Source: a virus. From it: a DNA stretch of 64,000 bases. Made by a program: the position numbers and the translations under genes. Under the pieces are notes generated by a model that was given only the letters and a program-made list of their open reading frames with translations, was not told the origin of the DNA and made no database searches. The stretch lies in the UHGV virus genome UHGV-1366919, one strand, 5' to 3'. This document shows positions 11,970-59,333 of the stretch, in pieces (the stretch's first letter is position 1; each line of letters opens with the position of its first letter).

Positions 11970-11982
11970 ATACAATAATGAA

Positions 11983-33449: not shown

Positions 33450-33482
33450 AAGCCGTTAAGGAAAATATATTTTTTATTATTT

Positions 33483-34283: not shown

Positions 34284-34323
34284 ATACTTTTATAGTATTG
34301 CTTTCCATAATTGAAGGAGGTGT

Positions 34324-34926
34324 TTAGTCAATGATCATAAATTCATTACTACACAATTCTTCGACTTCTTTAGTAACCCACTCAATGAAAAAACCTCGCT
34401 TGAAATGGTCATCCTCACTAACAACATCAATCATTTTTCGTCTATTAAGAATATCCCTTTCAATACTCTTAGGGCAGTAATCTCCTGAAAAAGGATTTCG
34501 AAGCCGACTCTTCAAAGCTTGATTATCATAGTTCCAGAAATAAATTTTATTAGGGAAAAGTATTTTTCCTTTATTATGATATTCAAGAGCCAGCGTATAT
34601 TTGTTTACAAACTCGGCCGGGGTCATACCGAAAGAAGCTTCAGTTGAAAATCTCTCAATCATTAAAGAATGATTTGGATCTGTTCCATTTCTATAGACAT
34701 CTTGAGCCAAGGACTTAATAGAAAATGAATATTGCTCTGCATTCTTTTTTAAGAAGCTGAATATATCATCATTATCCTTGATACTAGACTTTAACGCAAA
34801 GATTCTCTTGTATTTTTTAGAATAAAAGAAAAGCTTAAGGAAAAAGGGACTTACAGAAAATATAGCGTCAGGATGTTCCTGAAGAAATGTTTCAAGAGTT
34901 GATGTATTCAAATTTATCAGAAGCAT
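34324..34926 (-). CDS. hypothetical protein
   Basis: 200 aa. Confidence 0.4.
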   Translation of the reverse strand: MLLINLNTSTLETFLQEHPDAIFSVSPFFLKLFFYSKKYKRIFALKSSIKDNDDIFSFLKKNAEQYSFSIKSLAQDVYRNGTDPNHSLMIERFSTEASFGMTPAEFVNKYTLALEYHNKGKILFPNKIYFWNYDNQALKSRLRNPFSGDYCPKSIERDILNRRKMIDVVSEDDHFKRGFFIEWVTKEVEELCSNEFMIID

Positions 34927-35040
34927 AACTTCATTTTATAGTTTTCCTTATTTGAGGACGGTGCCTGATATAAAAATAATAAAAGCTCGGATGGATAAAA
35001 GTCCATCCGAGCTTCATAATACTCAAGTTAAACCAATTGC

Positions 35041-35376
35041 TTACTGAATGCTCTGAGTCGGAACTTCAAAGTTCAGCATTTCAGCCGCAGGTTCGAAACT
35101 CGTAATTTCGTTAAGAATACTTTCAGGAAGAGAATTCTTCAGCGGTTCAACAACCATCTGATGCCAGGGTTCAACAATCTTTTCGTTCCAAGTAGCCTGG
35201 GCCTCTTCAGGAGTAGTCTTGCCAAGCAGAACCTTATTGGTCAGATTCGTCTTAGTCGTGCAAGCCTTCGACTGAACACCGGCATAATCACGAGCAGGAA
35301 CACTCGCACGAATGCGAATAACGGTTCCATTGGTCAGATGAGCGTTCAGGTCTACGTTCTTAATGTCTTTAGCCAT
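35041..35376 (-). CDS. hypothetical protein (GC-richer gene)
   Basis: 111 aa; composition differs from neighbours; long 5' UTR after the CACCT motif at 35471-35480. Confidence 0.4.
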   Translation of the reverse strand: MAKDIKNVDLNAHLTNGTVIRIRASVPARDYAGVQSKACTTKTNLTNKVLLGKTTPEEAQATWNEKIVEPWHQMVVEPLKNSLPESILNEITSFEPAAEMLNFEVPTQSIQ

Positions 35377-35662
35377 TGTATGTTTTTCTTTCTATTTTAG
35401 TTTGTTTTGTTTTTTAAGTTAACCACTTAATGTGATTTACAGTTTTATAATAAGATTTAACTTATTGTTCAAAGGTGTTCAAGATTTCTTCTTGATATTT
35501 CTAGGATCACAAAATAGCATCGGAATAAAGAACACTATATCAAGGCAAATTGCAAGAGGAGTATAAATCAATATTCCGAAGGATATAATCATTAGAGCAA
35601 GTTTGTCTCTAAATCTTGGAGCATCTCTCATATACTTGAAGCAAGTATAGATTAGCTCAAAC

Positions 35663-36136
35663 TCAAATCTCAGAAACGGTAGTACCATCAGATGGACTGA
35701 ATACAAAAGCCCGTACATATTGAGCCAATGGAAGCCTCTGTCTCCATTCGGCTTTGAGCTGAGTAACTCTATTCCGATAATTCCGTTCAGATTTTGGACA
35801 AGAATTTATAATATCTTCGGAAATAATTTTACAATGCTCGATATAAACCATATTTTCCTGATAAGAAAACTCCCGCTTAGGCTGAAGGCCGTTCAAAGTT
35901 TTAATAAAAGAATCCCGCATTTCAGATAAAGCTTGAATCTCTTCTTCATCTACGAGTTCCTGAAGCAAAGTTCGTTCAAGAGTATTTTTAATAATTTCAA
36001 GGCTTTCCCGAACTAACTCCAAATATCCATCATATCCGATCTTTTCGAATACAATATTTTTTAGGCTTCGGTCGGAAGCAGAGAAATATTCTTTCAGAAA
36101 ATATCTTTGCATATATTTGTTTATCTGTAGTTTCAA
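35663..36136 (-). CDS. hypothetical protein
   Basis: 157 aa. Confidence 0.35.
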   Translation of the reverse strand: MKLQINKYMQRYFLKEYFSASDRSLKNIVFEKIGYDGYLELVRESLEIIKNTLERTLLQELVDEEEIQALSEMRDSFIKTLNGLQPKREFSYQENMVYIEHCKIISEDIINSCPKSERNYRNRVTQLKAEWRQRLPLAQYVRAFVFSPSDGTTVSEI

Positions 36137-36179
36137 TCCACATACTTTGAGCTAATCAAAGTATGAAAAAGTTTAATGT

Positions 36180-36647
36180 TTACCTATAAAATGCCGCCGT
36201 TACAGTCAACCCGTTGTTGAAGACAACCTTACCGCAAATAATATAACCGTCCTCCTCTTCTTCATCAAATTTGGTAAAGCTCTTAATATAGCCATTAGCT
36301 TTGATAAAATCAAGAAAATCTTTCTCTCCAAGGAACTTATAATTGTTCGGAGAAAATATAGTTATTTCACCGGTAGACTTATTTTCAATCGAGATAAGAT
36401 TTGCCCGACTGCAATAATAAAGGAATATGTTAGCATTCCTGTCAAAATTAACAATCTGTGCACCCTTCAAAGTAGTAAACCTAAAGTTAGAATGGCCGAG
36501 TTGTCCTTCATACATTCTAGCGAAGCTGTTAATATTTTCTTCAGTAAAAGGATTTTCTTGAATAACTTTAGAATGGAATACCCATTTACCTGCCTTGGTC
36601 CGTCTTTCTACAATAATAGTCCGGAATTTCTGGTTTGTCTCTAGCAT
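36180..36647 (-). CDS. hypothetical protein
   Basis: 155 aa. Confidence 0.35.
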   Translation of the reverse strand: MLETNQKFRTIIVERRTKAGKWVFHSKVIQENPFTEENINSFARMYEGQLGHSNFRFTTLKGAQIVNFDRNANIFLYYCSRANLISIENKSTGEITIFSPNNYKFLGEKDFLDFIKANGYIKSFTKFDEEEEDGYIICGKVVFNNGLTVTAAFYR

Positions 36648-36656
36648 ATTTTGATT

Positions 36657-36860
36657 TTAGTGTATATTGTTAAGATTTTTATAAACTGCTTTAGTATATT
36701 CGTCCTTTTTAGAAACCCAACGTTTAGGCATGCTGATACGTTCTTTCTTAGAGAGGAATGACCAATGAGTTGCTTTACCGCCTTTTGTCTTTCCCTCTTT
36801 ACTCCAAATGCCTGAAGTTTTCATACTTCTAGGAGTTGGCTCAATACTGTCATTCAACAT
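36657..36860 (-). CDS. hypothetical basic protein
   Basis: 67 aa; CACCT motif 36889-36899 upstream. Confidence 0.3.
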   Translation of the reverse strand: MLNDSIEPTPRSMKTSGIWSKEGKTKGGKATHWSFLSKKERISMPKRWVSKKDEYTKAVYKNLNNIH

Positions 36861-37289
36861 AATTTTATGTTATTTGCGTTCTATTTTCTCAAAGGTGTTT
36901 TAACAATTGGAAATAAGTAAAAATTATTCCAATTATGAGTGCGATTATAAAAGCAATTATATTTGCTTGCCATTGTTTCATTTAACCAAAGAATACTTGA
37001 TAAAGTTGATAAATGCTTGCAATAAAAAGTATAACAATTGCTACGCCCAAAGCTTGCATAAAACCTTCAAATGATTCAGGATCAGCCATGATATTTGATA
37101 TAGTTGATTGTTAAAAGAATGATAAAACCAATTCCAAAACCAGTAAGCCAGGATTTTATCATATTAAAACTTATCTGGATTTTCTGAAATCCATTTAGAT
37201 CCCCATGCCATTAGGCAAAGAACCAAAAGAATTGCAGGACCAACCAAAACCGGTTTAAGGGCCTCATATAGTTCAATAAGAAAAGTCAT

Positions 37290-37586
37290 TTAATAATATC
37301 CTATCCAGTTGTTAAGTGTTGCCAGTTCTTCTAATTTTGTTTCTGCTTCTTGAAGAGTCTTAAAAATAAAATCTTCTTTATTCAATCCTTGTTGAATATC
37401 CCAAATATATCCTCGTTTGATAAATTTGGAATGAAAATCTTCTCCTCCGATAATTACTCGGATAGAATAATCTTCTTTTTCAAAATGGACCACTTGAAGA
37501 TAAATCCTGAAACCGTCGCCGTCCCCAATATGATATGTCTTTGACGGCTCCAGGACAAATTCCGTAATACTACTTTCGTTTTCCAC
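37290..37586 (-). CDS. hypothetical protein
   Basis: 98 aa. Confidence 0.3.
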   Translation of the reverse strand: MENESSITEFVLEPSKTYHIGDGDGFRIYLQVVHFEKEDYSIRVIIGGEDFHSKFIKRGYIWDIQQGLNKEDFIFKTLQEAETKLEELATLNNWIGYY

Positions 37587-37962
37587 GCTGACCTTTCTTA
37601 TATTCCCAATTCTTCATCTTAAGAAGATAATAAACCCTCCCAACTGCAATTCCAGAAAGAACGGACATTTGCTTAACTGTACGATCCGGAGAATAAAACT
37701 TTCGAAGTTGCTCAATCTCAGGTTCCCAATCTCGAGTTTGCCGCCCTGAAGTAGCCCGGCCGCCAATTTTACCAACATAAACAATATCGCAAAGATATTT
37801 GCCAAGTTTGAAAAGATTGTTAACAGGCTTAATATTGTCCTCAATATTCAAATCCGAAAAATAATCTTCCTTTGCTTTATTGAGAACATCTTCAATTGTT
37901 CCAAATTTTACATTAACAATCTGAAAGTTTAATGTTTCAGTGTTGATAATTTTTATTTGCAT
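37570..37962 (-). CDS. hypothetical protein
   Basis: 130 aa; CACCT motif at 37997-38007 upstream. Confidence 0.35.
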   Translation of the reverse strand: MQIKIINTETLNFQIVNVKFGTIEDVLNKAKEDYFSDLNIEDNIKPVNNLFKLGKYLCDIVYVGKIGGRATSGRQTRDWEPEIEQLRKFYSPDRTVKQMSVLSGIAVGRVYYLLKMKNWEYKKGQRGKRK

Positions 37963-38009
37963 GATACTTTTATTATATTTCTTACCTTATTATTTGAAGG
38001 TGTTAGAAC

Positions 38010-38285
38010 TTAAACCAAATAAAAGAAATGTTTCTTTTTGAAATTATACAAAATATACCTTTTTTGATCTTCATCATATTCAACTTCAGACTCTTCTTCT
38101 CGATAAAACATCTTAATATCATTGGACAAGCGAGTAACTAAGATGCCATATTCCGGCCGTTCTTTAATTTCAATCGAAACTTCAACGGGCTTAAGAAAAT
38201 CAAAATTAAGAGGAATACCACAATATTTTACTTTTTTCCCTTTTAGCTTTTTAGCAAACTTTCTAAAGTCTATTCTATTTTTCAT
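38010..38285 (-). CDS. hypothetical protein
   Basis: 91 aa. Confidence 0.3.
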   Translation of the reverse strand: MKNRIDFRKFAKKLKGKKVKYCGIPLNFDFLKPVEVSIEIKERPEYGILVTRLSNDIKMFYREEESEVEYDEDQKRYILYNFKKKHFFYLV

Positions 38286-38424
38286 TTAATTTATTTTTAA
38301 GATTGTTTTATTCTTTTATAATATAATAATCTTATTATAAAAATAATTCCTTAAAACGATTTTTAGAATAAAAAAGGCATTCGAATTCAATTCGAATGCC
38401 TTTTACAATATTAGGTAAAATACT

Positions 38425-38850
38425 TTATTCCAAATAATCGGAAAGTGCTTTAACAAACTCTTTACCGATTTGAGTTATCGGTTCATTATAAAACATTTTA
38501 CGATCGGCCCTAACAATAATTTGCTTCTTTTTGGGCAAAATAGCTCCAGGCTCTTCTTGCCCGGCATAATCTTCAAGATATTGTCCGATACTCAAATTAG
38601 CAAGAAGAATATCATCGATAAGTTCAAAAACATATTGAAAATCATCTTTACCAATTACATCACTAACTTCCCAATCTTCATCGTCATTGTATAAAAGAAT
38701 AAAGAGTTTATCACGATGTTCAGGACTTTCGTAAACAGCCATATAAACCGGCATATCCTCATCAAGCGGTGCATCTACCCAGTTTTCAGGATTACGAGGG
38801 TCGGAAGCATCCGATTGTTCTCGCACCCTATCAATACTCCAATTTTCCAT
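38425..38850 (-). CDS. hypothetical acidic protein
   Basis: 141 aa. Confidence 0.35.
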   Translation of the reverse strand: MENWSIDRVREQSDASDPRNPENWVDAPLDEDMPVYMAVYESPEHRDKLFILLYNDDEDWEVSDVIGKDDFQYVFELIDDILLANLSIGQYLEDYAGQEEPGAILPKKKQIIVRADRKMFYNEPITQIGKEFVKALSDYLE

Positions 38851-38888
38851 AATATTATTTTATAATAAAACTTAATTTATATCGGTGC

Positions 38889-47168: not shown

Positions 47169-48200
47169 TTATTGTGAAACCAATTCACAATACATCATTC
47201 TCTTACCAATCATTTTGGTAATCGTATCTCCTATACATTCCATTACTTCAATCTTGGAGGTATTATGCCTATAGGAAAACTCATGGATATACCTCTTCAA
47301 ATGCTTAGGAGACATGTAATGGTAAACTCCATAATAACCTCTTTTCAGTAGAGACCAGAAGCTTTCAATGGAATTAGTATGAACCTCTCCATTGACGTAT
47401 TGTTTCCCCTTATGGTTGACAAACTCATGGACAAATCCGACAAGTCCTTTATAGGATTTGAACTCATCCGTAAACACATTGGAATTCCTCTCTACATGTT
47501 TTCCGATGAATCCTTGTAAATTGTAAGCGGATGTATCGTCGATATGTTTGACGATTACTTTTCCGTTTCTCTGTTTGGCTCCGATCACAATCAATTTACC
47601 TACTGAACCTCTTCCCTTGTTCAGCTTCTTGGAAAAGTGTTTGTTGGATTCCTTTCCTCCAATGAAGGTTTCATCTACTTCCACAATACCGTCCAACTTC
47701 TCCTTTTTATCTTTCATCCAAACTTCTCTGATCCTGTGACAGAGGAACCAGGCAGTCTTCTGAGTGATTCCAAGTTCTTTTGAAATCTGGATGGAGGAAA
47801 TGCCTTTTCTGGAAGTCGCCAACAGATACATACACATCAACCATTTGTGAAGAGGCAATTTGGATTCCTCTAAAATTGTACCAAATCTGACGCTGAAGAA
47901 CTTTCTACAATCTTTACAGCGATAAGGCATCGGTTTTTGATCCTTACATTCGGTGATATAATTGGAACCACAATGAGGACAACGGACATGACCATTCCAT
48001 CTTTTTAACTCAAAATATTTCCGGGCGGATTCCTCATTAGGAAATTTGGAGAAGAAGTCATAGAGAGAAGTGTATTTGAGCTTAGTTTTTCCCATATCAT
48101 CGCTTGGTTGATAGGGAAATTTTGTCGTGTTTTGATTGGTTCGTACGCGTTTATTTTCAGCGTATTGAGAATTATTTTTTATTACAATTTTCTTACCCAT
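47169..48200 (-). CDS. IS1595-family (ISXO2-like) DDE transposase
   Basis: N-terminal zinc-ribbon (CPHCGS...CKDCRKF), HTH, DDE core (DETFIGGK...). GC-richer than the host sequence. IS ends not resolved. Confidence 0.7.
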   Translation of the reverse strand: MGKKIVIKNNSQYAENKRVRTNQNTTKFPYQPSDDMGKTKLKYTSLYDFFSKFPNEESARKYFELKRWNGHVRCPHCGSNYITECKDQKPMPYRCKDCRKFFSVRFGTILEESKLPLHKWLMCMYLLATSRKGISSIQISKELGITQKTAWFLCHRIREVWMKDKKEKLDGIVEVDETFIGGKESNKHFSKKLNKGRGSVGKLIVIGAKQRNGKVIVKHIDDTSAYNLQGFIGKHVERNSNVFTDEFKSYKGLVGFVHEFVNHKGKQYVNGEVHTNSIESFWSLLKRGYYGVYHYMSPKHLKRYIHEFSYRHNTSKIEVMECIGDTITKMIGKRMMYCELVSQ

Positions 48201-48337
48201 ATTGGGCGAGTAGAAAATTGTTCTCAGAATTTAATGATATAAAAATTAATGGAGCTTTATTTAATAGTCATTAGGATAAACGTACACTTAGGCATGTGTC
48301 TGGACTATATGGAGAATGAGTAAAAATGGCTTGACTT

Positions 48338-48814
48338 TTGCTTTCTTCTTTTTCATCATATGGTATGCGTTTAAACGGCAATCAAATTTTTAATTTTACC
48401 GAACTAACAAGTATTATTGTTACCCTATCGAAGGAAATACAAAAACAATCTATTGAATCTAGTAAAATAGTTCAAAATGATAATATTGATTATTCAAAAT
48501 TCATTCAAAATTATTTGATGAATGACCCAAACCCTTCTTTATCAGAAGAACAATGTGATGAACTATTACGTCGTTTAAATTTACTTCATGATTTATTTAT
48601 AAATCAATATATTCACCATCCAACCTTGACTTTTGGATGGCGCTCCGTAGTCGTTTTAATGTCTTTTTGCCTAAGCGATACTTTTGAGAAAAGCACCATA
48701 ATAGAAGAAAATACATCTTTGATGGAAGAAGTCTGCAACACAAAAGATCCATTTTTTGAAAGATTGTGTAAACAATTCGGTATAACCAAAGGCAATTTTT
48801 ACCAAGAACCATAA
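48338..48814 (+). CDS. hypothetical protein
   Basis: 158 aa. Confidence 0.35.
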   Translation: MLSSFSSYGMRLNGNQIFNFTELTSIIVTLSKEIQKQSIESSKIVQNDNIDYSKFIQNYLMNDPNPSLSEEQCDELLRRLNLLHDLFINQYIHHPTLTFGWRSVVVLMSFCLSDTFEKSTIIEENTSLMEEVCNTKDPFFERLCKQFGITKGNFYQEP

Positions 48815-48867
48815 AACTACTTATCTTCAGTTCACTAAATTACAATATATAATTTTTTACCAATCTT

Positions 48868-49605
48868 ATGATAAAAATAAAATTGGCTGTTTTAGGGCAC
48901 TTGCCGTATCTAATTGATATTTCAAAAATAATAAAATGGAAATCTTGTTTATTTGAAATTGAAAGAGAAGTAGGAAAATATCCAATTACAACCGATTCAG
49001 ATGGTCCCGATTGGAGTTATAGTGATTCTAATCTTGTAAGTATTATTCCTCAAAGAAATAGTGAGGATATTTTGATTGTAATTACAAATGTTCCTCTAGA
49101 AGGTAATTATTTTGCAAGAAGATTTTCTGATAATAGAGTATGTTTGACCTATTATGAGATGGTAGATATATTGACAATATATAATATTTCACTAGAAAAT
49201 CTTATTCTAAGGGTTTTATATTCTATATCTATATTGTATAAAAGATATAGAAATCGTATTCCTACACGTCATGAACCAACGAATTTTGCTCATGATGAAA
49301 CAAGAGGATGTCTATATGACATGTGTGGTATTAAAACAGATATAATTCATTCTCTTAATAAACCGCAGTTATGTGATGATTGTGTTCATGATATAACTCA
49401 TAATGAAAATCCAAGGATCGATAGAAGTATTATTGATAAAGTTCAAATTGAGTTAAAGAAAATACATAAAGAAAGATATTATCAAATCTTGGATTTTGTA
49501 AAAAGAAGACCTGTTTTCACTCTTATTTTATCAACAATTATAACAATTGTTCTTGGTGCTGTCGGATCAGTTTTAGCGACAATATTATTAGAATATTGGA
49601 GGTGA
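48868..49605 (+). CDS. hypothetical protein with C-terminal TM anchor
   Basis: 245 aa; C-terminal LILSTIITIVLGAVGSVLATILL. Confidence 0.4.
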   Translation: MIKIKLAVLGHLPYLIDISKIIKWKSCLFEIEREVGKYPITTDSDGPDWSYSDSNLVSIIPQRNSEDILIVITNVPLEGNYFARRFSDNRVCLTYYEMVDILTIYNISLENLILRVLYSISILYKRYRNRIPTRHEPTNFAHDETRGCLYDMCGIKTDIIHSLNKPQLCDDCVHDITHNENPRIDRSIIDKVQIELKKIHKERYYQILDFVKRRPVFTLILSTIITIVLGAVGSVLATILLEYWR

Positions 49606-49707
49606 TCTGTTGGATGGTTAGTCAAGTATGTAGGTCCCATATTTTTGCCAAAGATAAATCTTTGTTACTGGAAACAACCACGTAGAGGTATATTACCGTA
49701 TGTTTCC

Positions 49708-50147: not shown

Positions 50148-50293
50148 CTTGTTACATTTTTATTATATTTTTTACCTTTATTTTTAAAGGTGATTTGAAA
50201 TATTGGAGCTGACAAGTAAGATTTGCACTTACAACTTCCTACTGGAATGCAGGACGACTTACTGCTTAAATCGATTGTCGCTTTAAAAAAACT

Positions 50294-50380
50294 TGGTACT
50301 ACCGGCGGGACTTGCACCCGCACGCTCTTACAAGCAACAAATTTTAAGTTTGCAATGTCTTCTAGTTCCATCACGGTAGC
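50294..50380 (-). tRNA. tRNA-Leu (anticodon TAA), type II with long variable arm, encoded CCA, non-canonical D/T loops
   Basis: Acceptor GCTACCG/CGGTAGT. Anticodon stem GCAAA/TTTGT with loop CTTAAAA. Variable arm TGCTTGTAAGAGCGT. T-arm GCGGG-TGCAAGT-CCCGC (G55). D-loop lacks GG. 3' ACCA. Confidence 0.5.
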
Positions 50381-50717: not shown

Positions 50718-51014
50718 CTAATCAAAACTAGTTATTTGATTTATTACTTTGCATCAAAACAATTTTAATTCAATTATCCGTCCTTCACAGGATTGATTTT
50801 TTTTTTTGAATATTTCATTCGAAAAATTAGTTTCGCTCTTGGCTACTTATGCTCATCGCCGCGTAAAGGCTTTTTCGATGATGAACTGGTTGCAGCGGGC
50901 GGACATGCTCCGCTTAAGAGATGCTTATGAGACATCTGAGGCTACTAATACCTCTTTACTTTCCTGCTGCGATTTTCTGAGCAGTTTAAAATCTTGCTCA
51001 GGATTCTGAATTAT

Positions 51015-51134
51015 TTACTTACCTTTCTGAACCTTAATTACAGGAGGCTGATTAACAGTTTGTTGCTGTTGCTGAGAGCAAGAAGCTGTCAAACAAATTA
51101 CAGAAGCGGTAAGAAGAATTGCAATGTTTTTCAT
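51015..51134 (-). CDS. small lipoprotein-like ORF (39 aa)
   Basis: MKNIAILLTASVICLTASCSQQQQQTVNQPPVIKVQKGK. CACCT motif GAGCACCTAC at 51166-51175 about 35 nt upstream of the ATG. Confidence 0.3.
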   Translation of the reverse strand: MKNIAILLTASVICLTASCSQQQQQTVNQPPVIKVQKGK

Positions 51135-51177
51135 GATTTTATAATATTTTTTATCTTATTTTTTGTAGGTGCTCAAA

Positions 51178-51432
51178 TCAAATATATGAGTTTTGATATT
51201 TAATTGAATTGCGGAATTTTTTATCAGGATATTCTTTAATAAATCCTTCAGCAATTTTATCATCCCATATAGGTCTTTGACTAAATTTAGCACGAATATT
51301 GGGTTGATCCTTGGCCTTATATTCCCGATACCATTTTATATTGTTTCGAGTTTTATAAATCCAAAATGCTTTTCTGCTGTCAAGTTTATAACAAAACTTG
51401 TCCGGTATATTTTTTCTATATGATCTGCTCAT
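51178..51432 (-). CDS. hypothetical protein
   Basis: 84 aa. Confidence 0.3.
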   Translation of the reverse strand: MSRSYRKNIPDKFCYKLDSRKAFWIYKTRNNIKWYREYKAKDQPNIRAKFSQRPIWDDKIAEGFIKEYPDKKFRNSIKYQNSYI

Positions 51433-51450
51433 AACTTTCTAGGTACAAAC

Positions 51451-52578: not shown

Positions 52579-52996
52579 TATATTTTAGATAATAAGAATA
52601 ATAAAAAGATTTTTGGAATAAACAACCGCCTATTGCAGTTGAATGAGATACAAGCTCATAACCTTTTTTAATTAGAAAAGAAATAACTTCATTTAATATT
52701 TCCTCAAATATTTCTTTATCATGCTCTCTTTCATTTCGAAGAGTAAAGAATAAAAATTTAGGCCGTATAACATATTCCGGTAAAGAATAATCCTCAATAA
52801 TAAAATAACCGGTTTTAGGCAATTCTTTAGTATAGCGATCTATTTTCAGATCAATTTGATCAAGAATATATTCGAGACAATTAGACTTTTTAATTCTATA
52901 TTTCTCAATATCAAGAGCTACTTTAAATCGTTTCTTTTCTTCTTTAAGCCTTTGTTTAAGAAAAGTTTTATATTCATTTTTGTTAAACCAGCTCAT
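52571..52996 (-). CDS. hypothetical protein
   Basis: 141 aa; overlaps the ATPase start. Confidence 0.35.
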   Translation of the reverse strand: MSWFNKNEYKTFLKQRLKEEKKRFKVALDIEKYRIKKSNCLEYILDQIDLKIDRYTKELPKTGYFIIEDYSLPEYVIRPKFLFFTLRNEREHDKEIFEEILNEVISFLIKKGYELVSHSTAIGGCLFQKSFYYSYYLKYNV

Positions 52997-53300
52997 TGAT
53001 TGATGCTTCTTTATAAAAGTTAGAAAGGATAAGAGTTATAATGAAAGGTTCTCCTTTACTCAATTCAATGTCATATTCAATGCCATTATTATCTTCTTCC
53101 CAAATAATATGAAGCTCATCGTTAAACACAACTGTTTCAATATTTTTAATGAGCAGCATATTTTTTACCTTTTGAGTAAGGTCAAACATTGATCCGTCAA
53201 ATTCAATGATTTTTCCTCCCATAAGGGAATCTTTAATAATATCTTCATCCCCGTGAGATACATGAAGATAAGATGGAATTGAAACTGCAAAATTACTCAT
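52983..53300 (-). CDS. hypothetical protein
   Basis: 105 aa; CACCT motif at 53331-53340 about 40 nt upstream. Confidence 0.35.
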   Translation of the reverse strand: MSNFAVSIPSYLHVSHGDEDIIKDSLMGGKIIEFDGSMFDLTQKVKNMLLIKNIETVVFNDELHIIWEEDNNGIEYDIELSKGEPFIITLILSNFYKEASINELV

Positions 53301-53330
53301 AAAAATATTATGAGATAAATCTTATAACTC

Positions 53331-53340
53331 AAAGGTGTTT
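53331..53340 (-). promoter_or_regulatory. representative CACCT-core promoter-like motif (minus strand TTAAACACCTTTGAG) ~40 nt upstream of the ATG at 53300
   Basis: One of 15 or more similar sites. The others: 34313-34324, 35471-35480, 36889-36899, 37997-38007, 44661-44670, 45101-45110, 47163-47172, 50186-50195, 51166-51175, 55768-55777, 57537-57547, 59135-59144; plus-strand versions at 8115-8126 and 14694-14704. Confidence 0.45.
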
Positions 53341-53350
53341 AAGAAATAAA

Positions 53351-53425
53351 TGGAAGAGTTGCTGGGGTACGATCCCAGAATAGGAGAGTCAAAGTCTCCG
53401 GTGTTGCCAATTACACTACAACTCT
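53351..53425 (-). tRNA. tRNA-Gln (anticodon TTG), CCA encoded, T-loop ATCGTAC (54/58 swapped)
   Basis: Acceptor AGAGTTG/CAACTCT perfect. D-arm GTGT-AATTGGCA-ACAC. Anticodon stem GGAGA/TCTCC with loop CTTTGAC. T-stem CTGGG/CCCAG. 3' TCCA. Confidence 0.6.
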
Positions 53426-53431
53426 ATTTGT

Positions 53432-53506
53432 TGGAGGCTTCAATCGGTTATGCTCCGATGTTACCGGGTTACAAATCCGGGGTTTTACTGATTAAACTAT
53501 AAAGCC
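53432..53506 (-). tRNA. tRNA-like gene, probable tRNA-Thr (anticodon TGT) with atypical D-loop (no GG), T-loop AGCATAA and A31-C39 mismatch
   Basis: Acceptor GGCTTTA/TGAAGCC, D-stem GTTT/AAAC, anticodon loop TTTGTAA, T-stem ATCGG/CCGAT, encoded CCA. Packed 6 nt and 2 nt from the neighbouring tRNAs. Confidence 0.4.
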
Positions 53507-53508
53507 TT

Positions 53509-53582
53509 TGGTACTTTGTATCGAAATCGAATCGATGACTTCTGAGTGGAAATCAGATGTTTTACCACTAAACTAACAAAGC
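53509..53582 (-). tRNA. tRNA-Gly (anticodon TCC), CCA encoded
   Basis: All stems perfect: acceptor GCTTTGT/ACAAAGT, D GTTT/AAAC, anticodon TCTGA/TCAGA with loop TTTCCAC, T ATCGA-TTCGATT-TCGAT. Confidence 0.7.
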
Positions 53583-53606
53583 ATTAACAAGACACATTTT
53601 CTTTAT

Positions 53607-53662
53607 ACTCTACCAATTGAGCTAGCATCCTCTTCTCAAAGATGCCTAGGATTCGAACCCAG
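53607..53662 (-). other. tRNA-like halves in permuted order: 3' half (T-arm CTGGG-TTCGAAT-CCTAG + acceptor strand) directly followed by 5' half (acceptor GGATGCT + canonical D-arm GCTC-AATTGGTA-GAGT)
   Basis: The two acceptor strands are complementary (CTAGGCATC/GATGCTAG) and joined by an 11-nt loop. No complete cloverleaf in normal order can be drawn. Confidence 0.35.
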
Positions 53663-53794
53663 AACCGTTCATTTTTCATATGACTAAGATAATTGTTGTT
53701 AATGTCTTTTTTATGAGAAGACTTAGAGATATTAGTTTCATCTTTCCTGATTACTTATGTTCATTACCACGTAAAGGTTTCTCCATTAATGAAC

Positions 53795-53866
53795 TCGGGT
53801 ACCAGAGGGTCGAACTCTGTTAATCATGCTCCCAAAGCATGCCCATAACCGTCCTGGCCATACCCG
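53795..53866 (-). tRNA. tRNA-Pro (anticodon TGG)
   Basis: Acceptor CGGGTAT/GTACCCG. Anticodon stem CATGC/GCATG with loop TTTGGGA (G37). T-arm CAGAG-TTCGACC-CTCTG. No CCA encoded. Confidence 0.6.
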
Positions 53867-54374
53867 TTATACCGGTATTGTCGTCAACTTTCTCAGAAGT
53901 ACCGGACTCCTATAGCTTCAGCATACGATCAGCTAAACGATTATTTCTTAACCCATCGTTCTAACGGTAATCAGTTCCAGCTCGCTCTCTAACCGCTAAA
54001 CTGATAAGTCGCTAGTTAGGTAATTCTTTGTGACTAGCAAAGAAACACTATGTTCGATCTACATATTTACTCATCACTATCGAGTCAACGGACTAATAGG
54101 CTAAGAGTGGGATCTTCGTATTTTTAAAAATGTATTAATAATACGATCACTTTTAATAGTATGATCTCTATATACTTTTTCCTGCTTGAGTAAAATCTAA
54201 GATTTTACTCAAATAATATTCACTTGTTTGTGGATTTTTATTTACAATATATGTTCCTAATGGACAATTAGTAATAATATCTAATGATCCATTTTCTACT
54301 ACTCATAGATTATTATTATTTCGAATGAATTGAGACATTATGTTATTTTGTTTTTGTTTTTGTTTTTTAAAATT

Positions 54375-54452
54375 TGGTAAGCCTGGTCGGATTCGAACCG
54401 ACGATCTATCGATTATGAGTCGATTGCTTTAAAACCTCTAAGCTACAAGCCT
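54375..54452 (-). tRNA. tRNA-Met/Ile2 (anticodon CAT), CCA encoded; abuts the HNH gene stop
   Basis: Acceptor AGGCTTG/CAGGCTT (two G-U pairs). D GCTT/AAGC. Anticodon ATCGA/TCGAT with loop CTCATAA. T GTCGG-TTCGAAT-CCGAC. 3' ACCA. Confidence 0.65.
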
Positions 54453-54989
54453 TTATAAATTATATTGTGGATAATGTAATTCTAAATGACAATTAGAACA
54501 TAATAAATCACATTTATCAGCTTCTATTTGTAAAATATTAATAGGTTTAGAACTAAATGCACTAGCACTTAAACTAAAACATTTTTTAGTATTTTCTCTA
54601 TGGTGAAAAGATAAAACAGCTAAATTTTTATTATAACCACAAATTTGACATTTTCCACCTTTTTGAGATATAAAAAATAATTTTCTATTTTTATATCTAA
54701 GTTTAAATGATTTATAATCTTTTTTAAAATTACGAGAAGTATTTTTAATTTTAGACCTACAAGAAATTGAACAATATTTTTGTTGTAAACCTGTTAATAA
54801 ATTATTACAAACAATACAATAACGTTTAATTTTATTATTTCCTTGAAATACTGTTTTTAAATTATATTCTTTTAATCTATTTTTAACTGTCATAGGTGAA
54901 CATTTTAATTCTTTTGCAATTTTTCGTGTACTTAATTGCTTATTAATTAAATGTTCTAATTGTTCCTTAGAAATATTTGACTTACCCAT
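54453..54989 (-). CDS. HNH homing endonuclease with N-terminal HTH
   Basis: CQICGYNKNLAVLSFHHRENTKKC...CSNCHLELH HNH motif; extremely AT-rich; adjacent to a tRNA. Confidence 0.65.
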   Translation of the reverse strand: MGKSNISKEQLEHLINKQLSTRKIAKELKCSPMTVKNRLKEYNLKTVFQGNNKIKRYCIVCNNLLTGLQQKYCSISCRSKIKNTSRNFKKDYKSFKLRYKNRKLFFISQKGGKCQICGYNKNLAVLSFHHRENTKKCFSLSASAFSSKPINILQIEADKCDLLCSNCHLELHYPQYNL

Positions 54990-55349
54990 TTATTCAAATG
55001 GTATTTGACTTATATCATTTATTGACTCAATTTTATTAATCTCATTAATTATAATACAACAATTATACAAATTAATTATACCATTTTCAAAATCTTTCCA
55101 ATCATTTTCTGTTGGTTCATAGCCTTTTTCTACTTCACTCCAACTAATATAAAGGTTATTATCTTCAATCTCAAAATTAATTTCAAAAATAGGCCAAATA
55201 CTAATAAATTTATCTTTTAATTCTTTATAAGTTTCAAAATTAAAAATTGTCTGACCATCATATCTTTTTTGGAAAGAACGAATTTCGCCTTTTTCATAAT
55301 TATCTTCACTTACTTCAATAATAGTATTTGATAAATTAATTTGATACAT
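54990..55349 (-). CDS. hypothetical acidic protein
   Basis: 119 aa. Confidence 0.35.
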   Translation of the reverse strand: MYQINLSNTIIEVSEDNYEKGEIRSFQKRYDGQTIFNFETYKELKDKFISIWPIFEINFEIEDNNLYISWSEVEKGYEPTENDWKDFENGIINLYNCCIIINEINKIESINDISQIPFE

Positions 55350-55384
55350 ATTAATTATTATTCTGCGATTATTTTAATTTTTCC

Positions 55385-55654
55385 TTATGAATTTGTATAA
55401 TAAATTCGTTTAAATCCCATTGTTCTAAGCATATTCATACAATTTGCACAAGGTTTAGAAGATACAATATTTCCATTATTATCAATTCTAATATTAAAAA
55501 ATTCAATATCAGAACAATCTTCTTTTCCCAATTTAAGAATTGCAGAAATTTCTGAATGAAAGCAAGGTTTATAAGACTTAGAACCAAATACTTTATATTT
55601 TCCATATTTGATTTTATAAACAACTCGATCATAATTATTCACACCAATTGCCAA
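55385..55654 (-). CDS. CMP/dCMP-type deaminase zinc-binding domain protein (short)
   Basis: HSEISAI...PCANCMNML matches the (H/C)xE...PCxxC deaminase signature; only 89 aa. Confidence 0.4.
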   Translation of the reverse strand: MAIGVNNYDRVVYKIKYGKYKVFGSKSYKPCFHSEISAILKLGKEDCSDIEFFNIRIDNNGNIVSSKPCANCMNMLRTMGFKRIYYTNS

Positions 55655-55765
55655 TACTTTCTTTTTAAGAACAGCAAATGTTATATGAAATGAACGGCCT
55701 GTTTGTTTTTGTCCTTTTAATGCTTTTGATATATCGATATAATTATTATTTTTTATATCTCACTT

Positions 55766-56611
55766 TCAGAAGGTGCCTGCAAAAAGCCTTCTTCGAATTG
55801 ACATTAAATCTTTTCCAAGATTATTTTCTCCAATCCCATTACAAACTCCAAAATAAGTATCTCCCCAGGTATTTTCTTCAATAAGAATTGATTCTCCTGT
55901 TCTCATTAATAGAGTTTTAAATGGTTCTTGCTTGAATTTTTCTTCACAAACTGCATACATAACCATATTTTTAATTCTATCCCAATCTTTTCGAAGGGGA
56001 ACAGTTTGACCTAATTTCCTAGCTTCTTTCGGAGACAATCCAATAAATTGGGCACGAATACCAAGATCTTCAGTCTTAAGAGCTTGATAAGCAGCTTCAG
56101 TAGAATTAAAAACCATTCCTTCCGCTATTATTTTAACTTCGGCAAAATTAGAAAGAAATTTAAAAATGCCTCTAAAATCAGCAATTATACGAGGATAAGA
56201 AAAGAAATATCCATTTGTTCCTTTAAAATTATTGGAATCAACAATATCCCAATATTTGTTATCATTAAAATTATAAACAAAAGCTTTTCCAAACAAAATT
56301 GGAGGAGGCTGATGAGAAATATTAGGCCTCCAAGCTTCCTGAAGAGTGACAGAATCAGCCCTATCTCTATAATAATAAGAAACAGAATTATCCTTTAAAT
56401 CGGAAGGAATCCATGAACCAGCGGCAAGTTTATGCGGACTTAACCTATGAATATTCCCATTTTTAATTAAAAGTTCTGGACAATCATTATAATGGCATAA
56501 AACATTTGATAAGAATTCCATATGATCAGAAGTTCTCATATCAAATAGAAACAATTCTAACCAAACTTCTTTAAGACTATCATAGATAAAAAGTTGAGTA
56601 GGATAATTCAT
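55766..56611 (-). CDS. NADAR (YbiA/DUF1768-like) domain protein
   Basis: C-terminal half FLSNFAEVKIIAEGMVFNSTEAAYQALKTED...WGDTYFGVCNGIGENNLGKDLMSIRRRL matches the NADAR/YbiA pattern. Confidence 0.5.
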   Translation of the reverse strand: MNYPTQLFIYDSLKEVWLELFLFDMRTSDHMEFLSNVLCHYNDCPELLIKNGNIHRLSPHKLAAGSWIPSDLKDNSVSYYYRDRADSVTLQEAWRPNISHQPPPILFGKAFVYNFNDNKYWDIVDSNNFKGTNGYFFSYPRIIADFRGIFKFLSNFAEVKIIAEGMVFNSTEAAYQALKTEDLGIRAQFIGLSPKEARKLGQTVPLRKDWDRIKNMVMYAVCEEKFKQEPFKTLLMRTGESILIEENTWGDTYFGVCNGIGENNLGKDLMSIRRRLFAGTF

Positions 56612-57255
56612 TTTCTTTTAATTAAAATTCGTTCTTCTTTAGATATAGGATTAATTTGGCAACCTTTTATTTCAAATCGTTCTTTAAAAGCTTTTTGGTT
56701 AATATTCAAAATATAAAAATTCCTTATATCTAATCTATATTTTTGATAAATCTTGATTGTTTTTAATGAATATAATGTAGCGTAATTAGCTGACAAAGTG
56801 CAAAGACCATCAAATGATTGGCAAGAATAAAAATTAAAACCATCAAATATAATATACTTCTTTTTTAGAAGAGCAGCATGAATAACATTCCACCATTTAA
56901 TTAAATCAGGATATTTTTCAATTAAAGTTTCCTTTAACCGGCAATAAAATTTATAACCTTGTTGTGCCCTTTTACCCTCAAAAGCCAATTTTCTTTTATA
57001 TTCTTTAATTCTTTTATTGAGAATTTTAACTCGAAGGTTATTAAATCTAAAATGGAAAGAATCAATTAAAAGAACTGTTTCAGTATCAACCAACGATAAA
57101 ATACTTTTTCCAGGAAAAGCTTCCTTAAATCGGAGCCAATGATAAATGTAATATTCAACAAGCTTCTCAGGGTTTTCTTTAAGATGATCTTCTATACTCC
57201 TTCCTAAAGGCTTAATAAGAGTTTTATATAACTCAACTTGAGAAATCTTGTTCAT
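56608..57255 (-). CDS. hypothetical protein
   Basis: 215 aa. Confidence 0.35.
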   Translation of the reverse strand: MNKISQVELYKTLIKPLGRSIEDHLKENPEKLVEYYIYHWLRFKEAFPGKSILSLVDTETVLLIDSFHFRFNNLRVKILNKRIKEYKRKLAFEGKRAQQGYKFYCRLKETLIEKYPDLIKWWNVIHAALLKKKYIIFDGFNFYSCQSFDGLCTLSANYATLYSLKTIKIYQKYRLDIRNFYILNINQKAFKERFEIKGCQINPISKEERILIKRK

Positions 57256-57499
57256 AATTAAAAATAAAAAAGTTAAGAGAGGGAGATTTAGTTGCTAAAG
57301 CCTCCAATAAGAGCCTGATACTCATTTTACCGGTCAACTTTACACATCCTAATCTCTTATAAGAAACCATTAATTTAGGCAAAGTAATCAGTATACCTGC
57401 ACTAAATGTATTCCTTAATAACAATCCTCAGTCTAGTAAAGGAGCTACCTTTATACTACTATTGGTCTAAACTTTTATTTGTCTTTCACTTAAAAACTA

Positions 57500-58612
57500 T
57501 TAGATGTTCATTAATTTATTATACACCTTGAAACCAATAGGTGTTTTGCGATAAATCATCCACAGTAGAGTTTGATTCAAGCTAGGATAAGTTTTCAATA
57601 ACTGAACTACTTCATGGGCATCTTCATAAATATTGATTTCTTTTAACCTTTTTTGACATTCTTTATAAGGAAGAACTACGAATTGTTCAAATTTTTTACA
57701 AACCTCAATCATATTAGGTTTAATATATTCTGCGATCTCATAGTCAAATTGTTTTTCTACAAACTCATAAAACTGCTTTTGAACTTGTTCAGCTTCAAAA
57801 GTTTCCGGATTGAGATAACCATGTTCATACATCGCTTCAGCTACTTTGAGTATAGAACTTAAGGTAGATTTCATCCGATGCAAAGTACAATACCAATCTG
57901 ATTTTATCTTTTTAAGAAGCTGTCCATTATTAAAATAAACAACAACTCCTTCAGCCGAAGTCCAGGATTTAATCTTTTCATTTAAATCAATGTAAGATTT
58001 AATATCCGGATATTCATATTGCCTTGGCCGTTTAAATTTATATGTATGAGCAATCGAGTTTAATTCTTTCTGAGTGGCATAAGAGTAATCTTTATGATTA
58101 ACCTTTCCAATCAGGAATAAATCAGGATTATCATACTTGAGAACAATCTGATTCGTTGGGGTTACCCATTCAAAAATCAAAGAAAAATCTGCAGTTTCGT
58201 AAGATTTAAAATATAATTCAATCTTGTACTGTTCCAATAAAGGATTAAGTTCGGAAGCATTTTTCTGTTGATATGCAGAAATAGTACCTCTGGTTCGAAC
58301 AATAAGTTTTCCTTTATATTTTGAAACAATCAGACATGAACCATCTAACTTTTCGGTTAGAACAAAATCTTTATCATAGTATGGTGCAACTGGTTCAAAA
58401 GCTGGCTGTTCATTAAAATTCATGAACTTTCTAAATCCCAATGAAACTGGGAATCCATCAGAAACCCGCCAAATAGAAGAACGATAAATCTTATTTAAAT
58501 CAGTAAATTTGGCAGAAATCAAAGGCGTAATCAGAACACAAAGGTCTCCAGCAATTTCTACTTCTTTAAAAGAAAATTCTTCTTCGGATTCTTTAAACCA
58601 CTGATACTTCAT
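57500..58612 (-). CDS. ATP-dependent RNA/DNA ligase family protein (Rnl-like)
   Basis: Motif I LTEKLDGSCLI (KxDG); AEGVVVYF...LKKIKS (motif IV/V). Confidence 0.55.
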   Translation of the reverse strand: MKYQWFKESEEEFSFKEVEIAGDLCVLITPLISAKFTDLNKIYRSSIWRVSDGFPVSLGFRKFMNFNEQPAFEPVAPYYDKDFVLTEKLDGSCLIVSKYKGKLIVRTRGTISAYQQKNASELNPLLEQYKIELYFKSYETADFSLIFEWVTPTNQIVLKYDNPDLFLIGKVNHKDYSYATQKELNSIAHTYKFKRPRQYEYPDIKSYIDLNEKIKSWTSAEGVVVYFNNGQLLKKIKSDWYCTLHRMKSTLSSILKVAEAMYEHGYLNPETFEAEQVQKQFYEFVEKQFDYEIAEYIKPNMIEVCKKFEQFVVLPYKECQKRLKEINIYEDAHEVVQLLKTYPSLNQTLLWMIYRKTPIGFKVYNKLMNI

Positions 58613-58826
58613 ACTTCCAACTAATTATTCCATTTTTATGACAGACAGAAATTACTTCAATTTTAAATGAACAAGTATAAGTTATTTTAGTATTATCTTT
58701 AGATGACTCAACTGACAAATGAGAAATCAAATCTTTATGAGGCATATCAAGAGAAACATAACTATTATCTCTTATATCAACAGCCTCCCAATGAACCCGG
58801 AATTCATTCCAATAAAGAAGGAACAT
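58593..58826 (-). CDS. hypothetical small protein (paralog of 58829-59074)
   Basis: N-termini MFLLYWNEFRVHWEAVDIRD vs MIIVHWNRSSNRWEAKDTKT. Confidence 0.3.
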   Translation of the reverse strand: MFLLYWNEFRVHWEAVDIRDNSYVSLDMPHKDLISHLSVESSKDNTKITYTCSFKIEVISVCHKNGIISWKYEVSVV

Positions 58827-58828
58827 AA

Positions 58829-59074
58829 TTAGAATCCAGCTGGAACGCAGCCATTCTTAACCTGGAGGCTGCCGCCGGGAGTTTTAGTAATAGTAAATGT
58901 TCCAGAACGAGAAGGACATTTATAAATTACATAGGCCTCATTTTCAGAAGAAGAAATTGCAAGAGGCTGAGAAAGCTCATTTTCTCGAGGAATAGCCAAA
59001 CCGATTGCATTACCAGTCTTGGTGTCCTTAGCTTCCCAACGATTTGATGAACGATTCCAATGTACGATAATCAT
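58829..59074 (-). CDS. hypothetical small protein (paralog of 58593-58826)
   Basis: 81 aa. Confidence 0.3.
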   Translation of the reverse strand: MIIVHWNRSSNRWEAKDTKTGNAIGLAIPRENELSQPLAISSSENEAYVIYKCPSRSGTFTITKTPGGSLQVKNGCVPAGF

Positions 59075-59333
59075 AATTTTAATTTCTAATTGTTAAATGT
59101 TATACTTTTATATTATTAAAACTCTTAATTTTTAGAGGTGTTCTTTACTTTTTCTAAATAAGCCTCAATTTTCAAAACTTCTTTATATGAAAATGATTTA
59201 TCTTTACACTTAGGGCAAATATGTGTTAATACATCTGGAACAATAATAACTTGACCTTTTTTGTCGGTGAAAACAAAATCTTCAATAACTTTTTGATAAT
59301 ATGGTTGCTAAATTCAATGAAATCTAATGAAAT

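Follow-up and report, generated by a model that had tools for sequence, protein, structure and literature searches.

A rigidly spaced three-box YACC motif as a lineage-specific candidate promoter element in a T4-like gut phage

We analyzed a 64,000-nt stretch of UHGV virus genome UHGV-1366919 (hereafter the window), which forms the beginning of a JGI metagenome contig of 210 kb, and found that a sequence with a CACCT core, noted upstream of many minus-strand genes in a first-pass annotation of the same DNA, belongs to a gapless tripartite motif of about 40 bp with rigid spacing and about 30 copies in the window. All the indirect evidence supports the argument of the annotation that the motif is a promoter of the phage and marks units of transcription, not signals for translation. 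In favor of the promoter reading are the strict orientation of the motif along the genes, the placement of sites at gene boundaries, a -10-like box at a constant distance, terminators located upstream, conservation at sites without an ATG, purifying selection on the core, and conservation in a distant relative. With a probability of roughly 0.55, we consider it the promoter of a pre-late (early and/or middle) class of a T4-like gut jumbo phage, probably with a sigma-type specificity that the phage itself specifies.

With the C of CACC numbered as position 0, the motif reads aaYACCt (positions 0 to 4), eight unspecified bases, wTAAG (with G at position 16), eight further unspecified bases, and TAnnATAAAA (positions 25 to 34), followed by a pyrimidine at position 36 and a purine at position 37. 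When position 37 is taken as the predicted transcription start (+1), aaYACCt lies at -37 to -33, wTAAG at -24 to -21, and TAnnAT at -12 to -7, with AAAA after it. The CACCT pentamer alone is not clearly enriched in the window, with 68 copies against 53.7 +/- 7.1 in shuffled sequences. When every CACCT was listed with its context, thirteen minus-strand copies between 28.3 and 59.1 kb aligned without gaps, sharing G16, A26, A29 and T30 in 13/13 cases and a purine at position 37 in 12/13. A matrix seeded with these 13 sites and iteratively refined carries 27 bits of information and identified 32 sites in the window, 26 on the minus strand and 6 on the plus strand. A second matrix, which ends at position 34 and so is unable to favor an ATG, identified 36 sites, compared with 0.46 in shuffled sequences.

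The sites added by the matrix have CACCG, CACCA, CACCC or TACCT cores. Across the 32 sites, A1, C2 and C3 are invariant. Position 0 holds C in 26 cases and T in the other 6, and just 24 sites have T4, so that the true invariant core is YACC and not CACCT. The -10-like box, T25 A26 n n A29 T30, has A26 in 30/32 sites, A29 in 32/32 and T30 in 31/32. When the boxes were scored separately, 23, 13 and 14 pairs fell at offset 0, against 0-2 at the other offsets from -4 to +4. As a negative control, about 1 Mb of AT-rich DNA from unrelated viruses was rescanned with the matrix; the motif did not cluster there, and a pattern of its 14 specified bases gave single chance matches only, among the matches listed, in viral contigs. 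The conserved element of the first-pass annotation is thus real, and it corresponds to just the 5' box of three. Its consensus, WAMCACCTYY, proved too literal, with seven exact matches, four of them in the range 34313-59144 over which the element had been reported. That range was itself too narrow, given that sites extend from 8118 to 59140 in the window and further ones lie past its end (L146).

Every site is co-oriented with genes: the minus-strand sites fall within the minus-strand gene block at 26-59 kb, and the plus-strand sites precede plus-strand open reading frames (ORFs) that start at 8157, 19416, 21457 and 28998. All sites of at least 20 bits are located at gene boundaries, in a window that is 84.5% coding, and the only deep intragenic matches are two weak ones, at 22882 and 61812. 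In many cases the upstream gene ends with a stop codon immediately before the motif and the next ATG comes 37 nt later, so that the intergenic region consists of nothing but the motif. Four of the strongest minus-strand terminator-like hairpins stand directly upstream of sites 44667, 45108, 34963 and 26406 (here and below, sites are named by the coordinate of their position 0).

The position of the predicted start comes from the 3' box. Position 36 is a pyrimidine in 29/32 sites and position 37 a purine in 28/32, and a pyrimidine followed by a purine at +1 is the usual start-site preference. The box looks like a -10 hexamer of the σ70 type, in which the factors of this family recognize, by flipping them out, A-11 and T-7 (established; summarized in PMC7598289). 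The invariant A26 and T30 would sit at A-11 and T-7, and therefore +1 would lie at position 37. The Y36/R37 pair does not appear to be start-codon context, because the pair and the preceding AAAA are kept at sites without a nearby ATG (59140, 35477, 28783 and 28914); two sites, 50192 and 33506, lack the pair. An ATG begins exactly at position 37 in 11 sites, and at positions 37-41 in 21 of the 36 sites found with the matrix ending at position 34, in agreement with the distance of 38-45 nt originally proposed; the other sites have either no ORF or a leader of 10-178 nt. Expressed from the gene side, the distance from the end of the TAnnnT-type box to the A of the ATG is 6 nt in 11 genes and 7-10 nt in about 10 others. 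Many mRNAs of this YACC class are thus probably leaderless or nearly so. What had been described as an A/T-rich leader without a Shine-Dalgarno sequence is better understood as the promoter spacer plus the -10 box.

Conservation among relatives points in the same direction. Near-identical variants and two more divergent ones (our handles L141 and L147) retain the sites. In orthologous 43-mers extracted by homology, with the motif score ignored, the 7 invariant positions account for just 7 of the 132 extra alleles, against 21.5 expected (P = 1e-4), while position 0 alternates between C and T among variants; this pattern indicates purifying selection on the core positions. A distant relative, L150, is a 203-kb contig of 29.5% GC whose DUF2828 protein is 50% identical to that of the window. 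It keeps the gene order ATPase, DUF2828, RNA ligase, Nudix, NAMPT, and no alignment with the window is possible in its intergenic DNA. Before orthologous genes it carries aACAC(C/T/A)...AG...TAnAAT at identical spacing, with the ATG at positions 37-39 in several cases. Homology breakpoints among the variants are also concentrated near the sites, with 11/49 within 60 nt against 4.1 expected (P = 0.0015); this enrichment may merely reflect the intergenic position of the sites, as the null was not limited to intergenic DNA.

The proximity of the motif to start codons raises the question of a signal at the RNA level, that is, a translation-initiation region or a processing signal within longer transcripts whose promoters lie elsewhere. 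The motif does end at the ATG in many cases, the sequence before the start is A-rich, with A at -3 in 24/32 sites, a positive initiation determinant in Bacteroidetes (PMC6847099), and many sites have no terminator after the upstream gene, so that read-through transcripts would contain the motif. This explanation is nonetheless highly improbable. In at least 7 sites the motif is complete even though the next ATG is 10-178 nt away or missing altogether; the conserved boxes containing G and C lie 21-37 nt before the ATG, too far for known initiation determinants; no conserved RNA structure accompanies them; and at four sites the terminator directly upstream would cut the gene off from transcription unless a promoter lay there.

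A short AT-rich palindrome, which the first-pass annotation treated as a feature of its own, does not hold up as one. The mean folding energy equals that of a column-permuted control (z = -0.1) and half of the sites have no stem. A hairpin or palindrome hypothesis was accordingly rejected, since folding is no better than the column consensus predicts, and the sites do not present the conserved extrudable inverted repeat upstream of the start that characterizes N4-type hairpin promoters. The impression of a palindrome arises from partial complementarity between CCTT and AAGG: C3-T4-T5 is complementary to A14-A15-G16, 13/32 sites extend this to CCTT/AAGG, and a few (50192, 47168 and 38002) form 5-7-bp inverted repeats. 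These same features are what would favor the two upstream boxes (CCTT-N8-AAGG) as the operator of a dimeric phage regulator, a global repressor or activator of the gene class, acting over a generic AT-rich promoter. We give such an operator very little credence, given that conservation is asymmetric (ACC in 32/32 sites, against G at mirror position 17 in 13/32 and T at mirror position 18 in 15/32, with the mirror of C0 never G), that palindromy does not exceed what the column consensus predicts, and that a center of symmetry near -27.5 would be unusual for an activator.

To ask what might read the motif, the identity of the phage must be considered. The window has a GC content of 31.8% and its genes lack Shine-Dalgarno sequences. 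They encode a fragment of Gp23 (the T4 major capsid protein), a gp5-like baseplate/lysozyme module, NrdG, an NrdD product with the domain order NRDD, Intein_splicing, NRDD, a 30.3/NADAR protein, two RNA ligases, NAMPT, a Nudix/cytidyltransferase and a TROVE-like DUF2828 protein, with rIIB just past the far end of the window. Mobile elements include several TnpB/IS605 and one IS1595, together with an HNH gene (54453-54989) and DUF723 genes. The phage is T4-like, based on the Gp23 fragment, which is 30-39% identical to the capsid proteins of isolate T4-like phages, and on the rIIB, 30.3-like and NrdD/NrdG genes. No GenBank phage matched 10 kb of the window by megablast. Identical proteins occur in 789-2802 blocks of an assembly collection, on contigs of about 200 kb, and several of the sample names look human-gut.

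These properties resemble those of the Jug phages (Chen et al. 2026), which are T4-like, have about 30% GC, are abundant in the human gut and have Bacteroides and Phocaeicola as predicted hosts (PMC12880540). Jug phages have genomes of 360-402 kb, carry an nrdD split by inteins or endonucleases and many homing endonucleases, and are reported to encode an RpoC-like (β'-like) protein; Jug-type phages reportedly account for about 1% of human-gut metagenome reads and none has been cultured (PMC12880540). The phage studied here shares the T4-like markers, the GC content of about 30%, the gut prevalence, the intein-split nrdD and the HNH/DUF723 genes, and is probably a Jug phage; contigs with these genes measure 190-210 kb, against 360-402 kb for Jug genomes, and the window begins inside a split gp23. 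The paper describing Jug phages never uses the word 'promoter' (PMC12880540), and a further literature search found nothing on Jug-phage promoters. A separate attempt to assign the host through the IS1595 transposase was uninformative, as its closest copy (91%) lies on a 2.5-kb contig binned with a Methanobrevibacter metagenome-assembled genome.

Bacteroides promoters have a spacer of about 19-21 bp between their -33 and -7 elements. The published Bacteroidota consensus consists of TTTG at -33 and TAHHTTTG at -7, with T-12, A-11, T-8, T-7, T-6 and G-5 nearly invariant (PMC6847099), and the spacer is described as AT-rich and variable (PMC7366714). The phage motif has A-8 in 32/32 sites, A-6 in 24/32 and A-5 in 26/32, where the host has T-8, T-6 and G-5, and its 3' box therefore departs from the host -7 consensus at 3 of the 6 near-invariant positions. 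The suggestion that a TTTG contained in the motif corresponds to the Bacteroidota -33 element likewise found no support: TTTG directly follows CACC in about 5/32 sites, and G occupies position 7 in 8/32. The complete TAHHTTTG occurs in 2/104 upstream regions, against 5.1 expected. The sites were not among the hexamer-pair matches listed for a TTGACA -35 hexamer located 16-18 bp before a -10 element; their positions 1-8 read ACCTtnaa. Because the motif differs from the consensus of the host sigma factor, σABfr, at positions where both are invariant, we favor a factor specified by the phage.

T4 early promoters are 'uber' versions of σ70 promoters, and the motif could correspondingly be an early promoter read by the unmodified host holoenzyme with σABfr, as a strong, non-consensus variant of the -33/-7 promoter. 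The TA at -12/-11 and T-7 are common to the host -7 element (PMC6847099), the 20-21 bp separating the upstream box from the -10 box come close to the Bacteroides spacer length, the window shows no promoters of the host consensus although some genes have to be transcribed first, and the genes served resemble T4 early genes (small ORFs, tRNAs and the rIIB neighborhood). We nevertheless judge this possibility unlikely, though far from negligible. A-8 is found in 32/32 sites, against a nearly invariant T in the host, A-6 and A-5 replace T and G, and E. coli-type TATAAT promoters have been reported to be inactive in Bacteroidetes (PMC6847099). In addition, the upstream box is YACC rather than TTTG, and the invariant G-21 has no host counterpart.

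The same window also holds a candidate second promoter class. TAAATA is the core of the T4 late promoter, TATAAATA, and it is also the most under-represented hexamer in the window, occurring 30 times where 129 occurrences are expected (z = -8.7). Between 1.4 and 13.3 kb, seven of these copies are placed 7-12 nt ahead of the ATG of a plus-strand gene, a pre-ATG fraction (23%, against a median of 2%) that is the highest of any A/T hexamer. These copies, at 1425, 3628, 5197, 6583, 7169, 8835 and 13334 on the plus strand, precede genes at 1443-13347 that include two TnpB genes, a tail-tip-like gene, several small ORFs and nrdD. The phage thus seems to have a T4-type late promoter class, whose boxes would leave leaders of only a few nucleotides. 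The YACC sites are of a different kind, since they read TAnnATAAAA and have upstream elements, where a T4 late promoter has TATAAATA at -10 and nothing upstream; the exception is the doubtful copy 47168, which has TATAAATA at 47147. In the window, the YACC motif marks a pre-late class, and TAAATA marks structural/late-type and other plus-strand genes, so that a restriction of the motif to one temporal class, a point raised in the first-pass annotation, holds there.

Another candidate reader of the motif is a polymerase encoded by the phage, possibly packaged in the virion as in jumbo phages of the phiKZ/AR9 type. Jug phages are reported to encode a β'-like RpoC (PMC12880540), and TAnnATAAAA is a 10-nt AT-rich element centered near -8, like the promoters of jumbo-phage virion polymerases (PMC7598289). 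The window also has no host-type promoters upstream of genes beyond chance (2/104, against 5.1). The promoters known for virion polymerases, however, have no conserved -35 and -22 boxes, the A-11/T-7 pattern is a signature of the σ70 family, and the avoidance of TAAATA together with its placement before late genes points to a T4-type gp55 system acting on the host core polymerase. We hold a phage polymerase to be somewhat more unlikely again than recognition by the unmodified host holoenzyme.

Under the reading that we prefer, a pre-late promoter with phage-specified specificity, the 3' box would act as a -10 element recognized in the way typical of sigma region 2, and the two upstream boxes would replace the -35 element and be read by a phage-specified protein. 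That protein could be a sigma-like factor of the phage, or the host core RNA polymerase could be redirected by a MotA/AsiA-like pair through sigma appropriation. Transcription would start at position 37, leaving 11 genes leaderless and about 10 more with leaders of 1-4 nt. In read-through transcripts, the same A-rich sequence would serve as the unstructured initiation region without a Shine-Dalgarno sequence that is typical of Bacteroidota.

Several points weigh against this interpretation. No sigma, MotA, AsiA or other transcription-factor domain was detected among 71 small ORFs of the window, and Pfam and PHROG scans of the window ORFs returned no sigma factor, MotA/AsiA or polymerase; these gene searches covered about 64 kb plus flanks of a genome of at least 200 kb, and proteins of this kind evolve fast. 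We know of no characterized sigma or activator footprint with boxes at -35 and -22 and a 20-bp gap to the -10 element. The RpoC-like protein reported for Jug phages makes a phage polymerase a live alternative, and the host was taken from the same paper (PMC12880540) for a phage whose Jug membership is only probable. The predicted +1 position and the putative leaderless transcripts follow from the geometry of the sites. Mass use of leaderless transcripts would be unusual for such a host, because only about 3.7% of 5' untranslated regions in B. thetaiotaomicron are shorter than 10 nt (PMC7366714).

A bolder version, which we put forward only tentatively, is that the three-box promoter drives the whole pre-late program and is unreadable by the host σABfr, that a phage factor or polymerase reads it, and that both promoter classes start at or near the AUG, with the phage relying on leaderless translation. 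That a translation initiation factor 1A-like gene, reported as part of the Jug core, could help such leaderless translation is pure speculation.

Among known systems, T4 and its relatives offer two close parallels. T4 middle promoters combine a stringent TAtaaT with a MotA box, (a/t)(a/t)(a/t)TGCTTtA, centered at -30 and 12 +/- 1 bp from the -10 element (Hinton 2010, PMC2988021). The two classes are alike in their T4-like lineage, in pairing a σ70-type -10 element with a phage box at a near-fixed distance in place of a -35 element, and in serving pre-replicative genes that include the rIIB neighborhood and tRNA genes. They differ in that the phage described here has two boxes, YACC at 20-21 bp and wTAAG at 8 bp from the -10 element, and no TGCTT; its host sigma would be σABfr and not σ70, and no MotA/AsiA homologue was found in the window. 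The promoter-early stem-loop (PeSL) cassettes of T4-type phages (PMC2839356, PMC4122927) similarly place dense, conserved promoters before small ORFs of unknown function in plastic regions, often with a terminator stem-loop directly ahead of the promoter. The homology breakpoints concentrated near the sites are a further, tentative resemblance to these cassettes. PeSL promoters, in contrast, are σ70 -35/-10 promoters with Shine-Dalgarno leaders, whereas here the sequence is another one and the ATG lies at or next to +1.

The σABfr promoter (PMC6847099, PMC7366714) resembles the motif in its two elements with an AT-rich spacer, in T-12, A-11 and T-7, and in the approximately 5 nt from the element to the start. 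The phage motif differs from it in A-8/A-6/A-5, YACC, an extra invariant G-21 and rigid spacing, where the host spacer is variable and host leaders are mostly longer than 10 nt. The early promoters of the jumbo phages phiKZ and AR9 consist of an AT-rich motif of about 10 nt, recognizable by bioinformatics, centered near -10 in front of early operons (PMC7598289); they have no -35 or -22 boxes and are used by virion multisubunit polymerases, in contrast to the σ70-like -10 pattern seen here. In sequence, in the rigid geometry of its three boxes and in where the start codon falls, the motif differs from every promoter class compared, and it is well supported, though indirectly, as a lineage-specific phage promoter. 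The apparent leaderless geometry involves two promoter classes of one phage, in a phylum where short or absent leaders are rare (PMC7366714).

The gene regulation of Jug-type phages is undescribed in the one paper that we found on them (PMC12880540). The 27-bit model can annotate transcription units and sort genes into temporal classes (YACC versus TAAATA), and it could help to revise start codons, to detect very small genes and non-coding transcripts, and to interpret existing metatranscriptomes. The wider interest lies in the mismatch with the host promoter code and in the apparent geometry of leaderless transcripts. The former predicts a phage factor that redirects the Bacteroides RNA polymerase, or a phage polymerase; the latter is a testable claim on leaderless translation in Bacteroidota. 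For synthetic biology in Bacteroides, the motif could be a source of promoters that are orthogonal and depend on infection.

Along the minus strand, starting from the far end of the window, site 59140 (59101-59143; 36 bits) has its predicted +1 at 59103 and a 29-nt leader before an 81-aa ORF at 58829-59074. Site 55775 (55736-55778; 27-29 bits) has its upstream box in the 3' end of the ORF at 55766-56611 and no ATG near +1; the HNH gene and a tRNA cluster lie downstream. Site 53337 (53298-53340) directly follows tRNA-Gln and has the ATG of a 105-aa ORF (52983-53300) at +1. The ATG of a 39-aa ORF (51015-51134) stands at +1 of site 51171 (51132-51174; 36-41 bits), with two tRNA genes downstream. 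Site 50192 (50153-50195; 39-42 bits) precedes a 60-aa ORF and tRNA-Glu, and has no conserved ATG, as the ATG-TAA found there reads ACG in the relative L141. The window has 8 tRNA genes in two clusters, which are served by YACC-type sites. Rfam reported two tRNA genes that ARAGORN did not (53435-53506 and 50297-50380, both on the minus strand), and the tRNA-Pro that ARAGORN placed at 53795-53866 is below the Rfam threshold. Rfam returned tRNAs only in the window, with no RNA family that explains the ORF-less sites and no group I intron above threshold.

The sites without an ORF, or with very small ones, that had been singled out earlier are in part confirmed. Those near 51134 and 26633/26910 are real and correspond to sites 51171, 26663 and 26932. 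The one near 45101 is a weak copy, site 45108 (45069-45111, minus strand), in which the first two boxes are in register, the -10 box is shifted, and no ORF follows. It lies in a 4.6-kb insertion (45041-49638) that is absent from most near-identical relatives, and its status as a promoter is doubtful. The function of another minus-strand copy, 47168 (47129-47171), is also doubtful because it lies inside this variant-specific insertion; it abuts the stop codon of the IS1595 transposase, and its -10 box overlaps the T-tract of a bidirectional hairpin at 47106-47133. This hairpin has a perfect 12-bp stem with T-runs on both sides, is located between the IS1595 transposase and plus-strand ORFs, and is a candidate bidirectional terminator. 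The insertion contains the IS1595-type transposase (47169-48200), a 440-aa ORF with a weak PEP-CTERM match, and the plus-strand ORFs. A second segment absent from most near-identical relatives (54128-55736; 1.6 kb) carries the HNH endonuclease.

Site 44667 (44628-44670, minus strand) has at +1 the ATG of a 494-aa DUF2828/TROVE-like gene (43146-44630). About 16 nt upstream of it is an intrinsic-terminator-like hairpin on the same strand (44686-44725) with 17 pairs and a T-run, and the two together form a terminator-then-promoter unit boundary. Continuing along the minus strand, site 41704 (41665-41707), with a TACC core, heads the Nudix-NAMPT block, the ATG of its 136-aa ORF (41254-41664) being at +4. 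Site 38887 (38848-38890; CACCG) has the ATG of a 141-aa ORF (38425-38850) at +1, and site 38002 (37963-38005) that of a 130-aa ORF (37570-37962) at +4. Site 38002 had the top score in the first two matrix scans, 44 and 37 bits, and the orthologue of the gene that it serves retains the motif in the distant relative L150. The ATG of a 67-aa ORF (36657-36860) lies at +1 of site 36897 (36858-36900). Site 35477 (35438-35480) is followed by a 64-nt leader and a 111-aa ORF (35041-35376), and its -10 and start boxes are conserved despite the lack of a nearby ATG.

Further along, site 34963 (34924-34966; CACCG) has the ATG of a 200-aa ORF (34324-34926) at +1, which is GTG in L147, and an intrinsic-terminator-like hairpin with 14 pairs and a T-run directly upstream on the minus strand (34982-35015). 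Site 34322 (34283-34325) is abutted by the upstream stop codon and has the ATG of a 96-aa ORF (33993-34283) at +3. Two TACC sites come next, 33506 (33467-33509), with a 20-nt leader and a 96-aa ORF (33159-33449), and 33167 (33128-33170), with the ATG of a 104-aa ORF (32814-33128) at +3. A 10-nt leader separates site 32084 (32045-32087; CACCA) from a 202-aa ORF (31429-32037), and site 30801 (30762-30804; CACCG) has at +1 the ATG of a hypervariable 207-aa ORF (30141-30764). This ORF, on the minus strand and of unknown function, shows 52-97% identity across dozens of clusters whose flanking genomes are 96-99% identical, and the diversifying locus could be linked to host range or counter-defence.

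The region 28614-28953 forms a divergent promoter hub. Three tandem minus-strand sites (28614-28762; 28759, 28713 and 28653), with no ORF downstream, stand back to back with two plus-strand sites (28780-28953; 28783, the first, and 28914), which precede a lone plus-strand ORF (28998-29387) that ends at a terminator with a 17-bp stem (29410-29449). The hub may be a source of non-coding RNA or a regulatory node. The remaining minus-strand sites are 28302 (28263-28305), with the ATG of a 131-aa ORF (27870-28265) at +1; 27639 (27600-27642; CACCC), with that of a 134-aa ORF (27194-27598) at +5; 26932 (26893-26935), with that of a 65-aa ORF (26698-26895) at +1, which is ATA in L147; and 26663 (26624-26666; TACC), with that of a 47-aa ORF (26483-26626) at +1. 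On the plus strand, site 8118 (8115-8157) has the ATG of a 59-aa ORF (8157-8336) at +3, and site 19378 (19375-19417; CACCA) has an ATG at +2 (19416) that opens a 138-aa frame inside the listed ORF 19368-19832. Site 21420 (21417-21459) has the ATG of a 189-aa ORF (21457-22026) at +1.

Other features of the window and its relatives are recorded here. Distant homologues of the ATPase in L143 and L144 led to an unrelated phage of 55% GC without the motif. This 176-kb phage, from the same JGI sample, encodes a 282-aa protein with σ70 regions r2/r3 (12307-13155, minus strand), and the gene adjoins an AAA ATPase homologous to the ATPase of the window. The module of NAMPT and Nudix/cytidyltransferase genes for NAD salvage (38983-41112) is an accessory cassette within the population, because it is missing from the variants L147 and L148. 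At the start of the window (1-4906), a 157-aa Gp23 fragment is followed by DUF723 genes, a remnant of an IS200/605 Y1 transposase and two TnpB genes; mobile elements appear to have split the major capsid gene, a possible reason why assemblies break at this point. Further TnpB genes are located at 59334-60434 and 62559-63896. Finally, GATATC (the EcoRV site) has 4 copies against 43 expected, and ATGCAT and GGATCC are also low; the scarcity of GATATC may reflect avoidance of host restriction systems.

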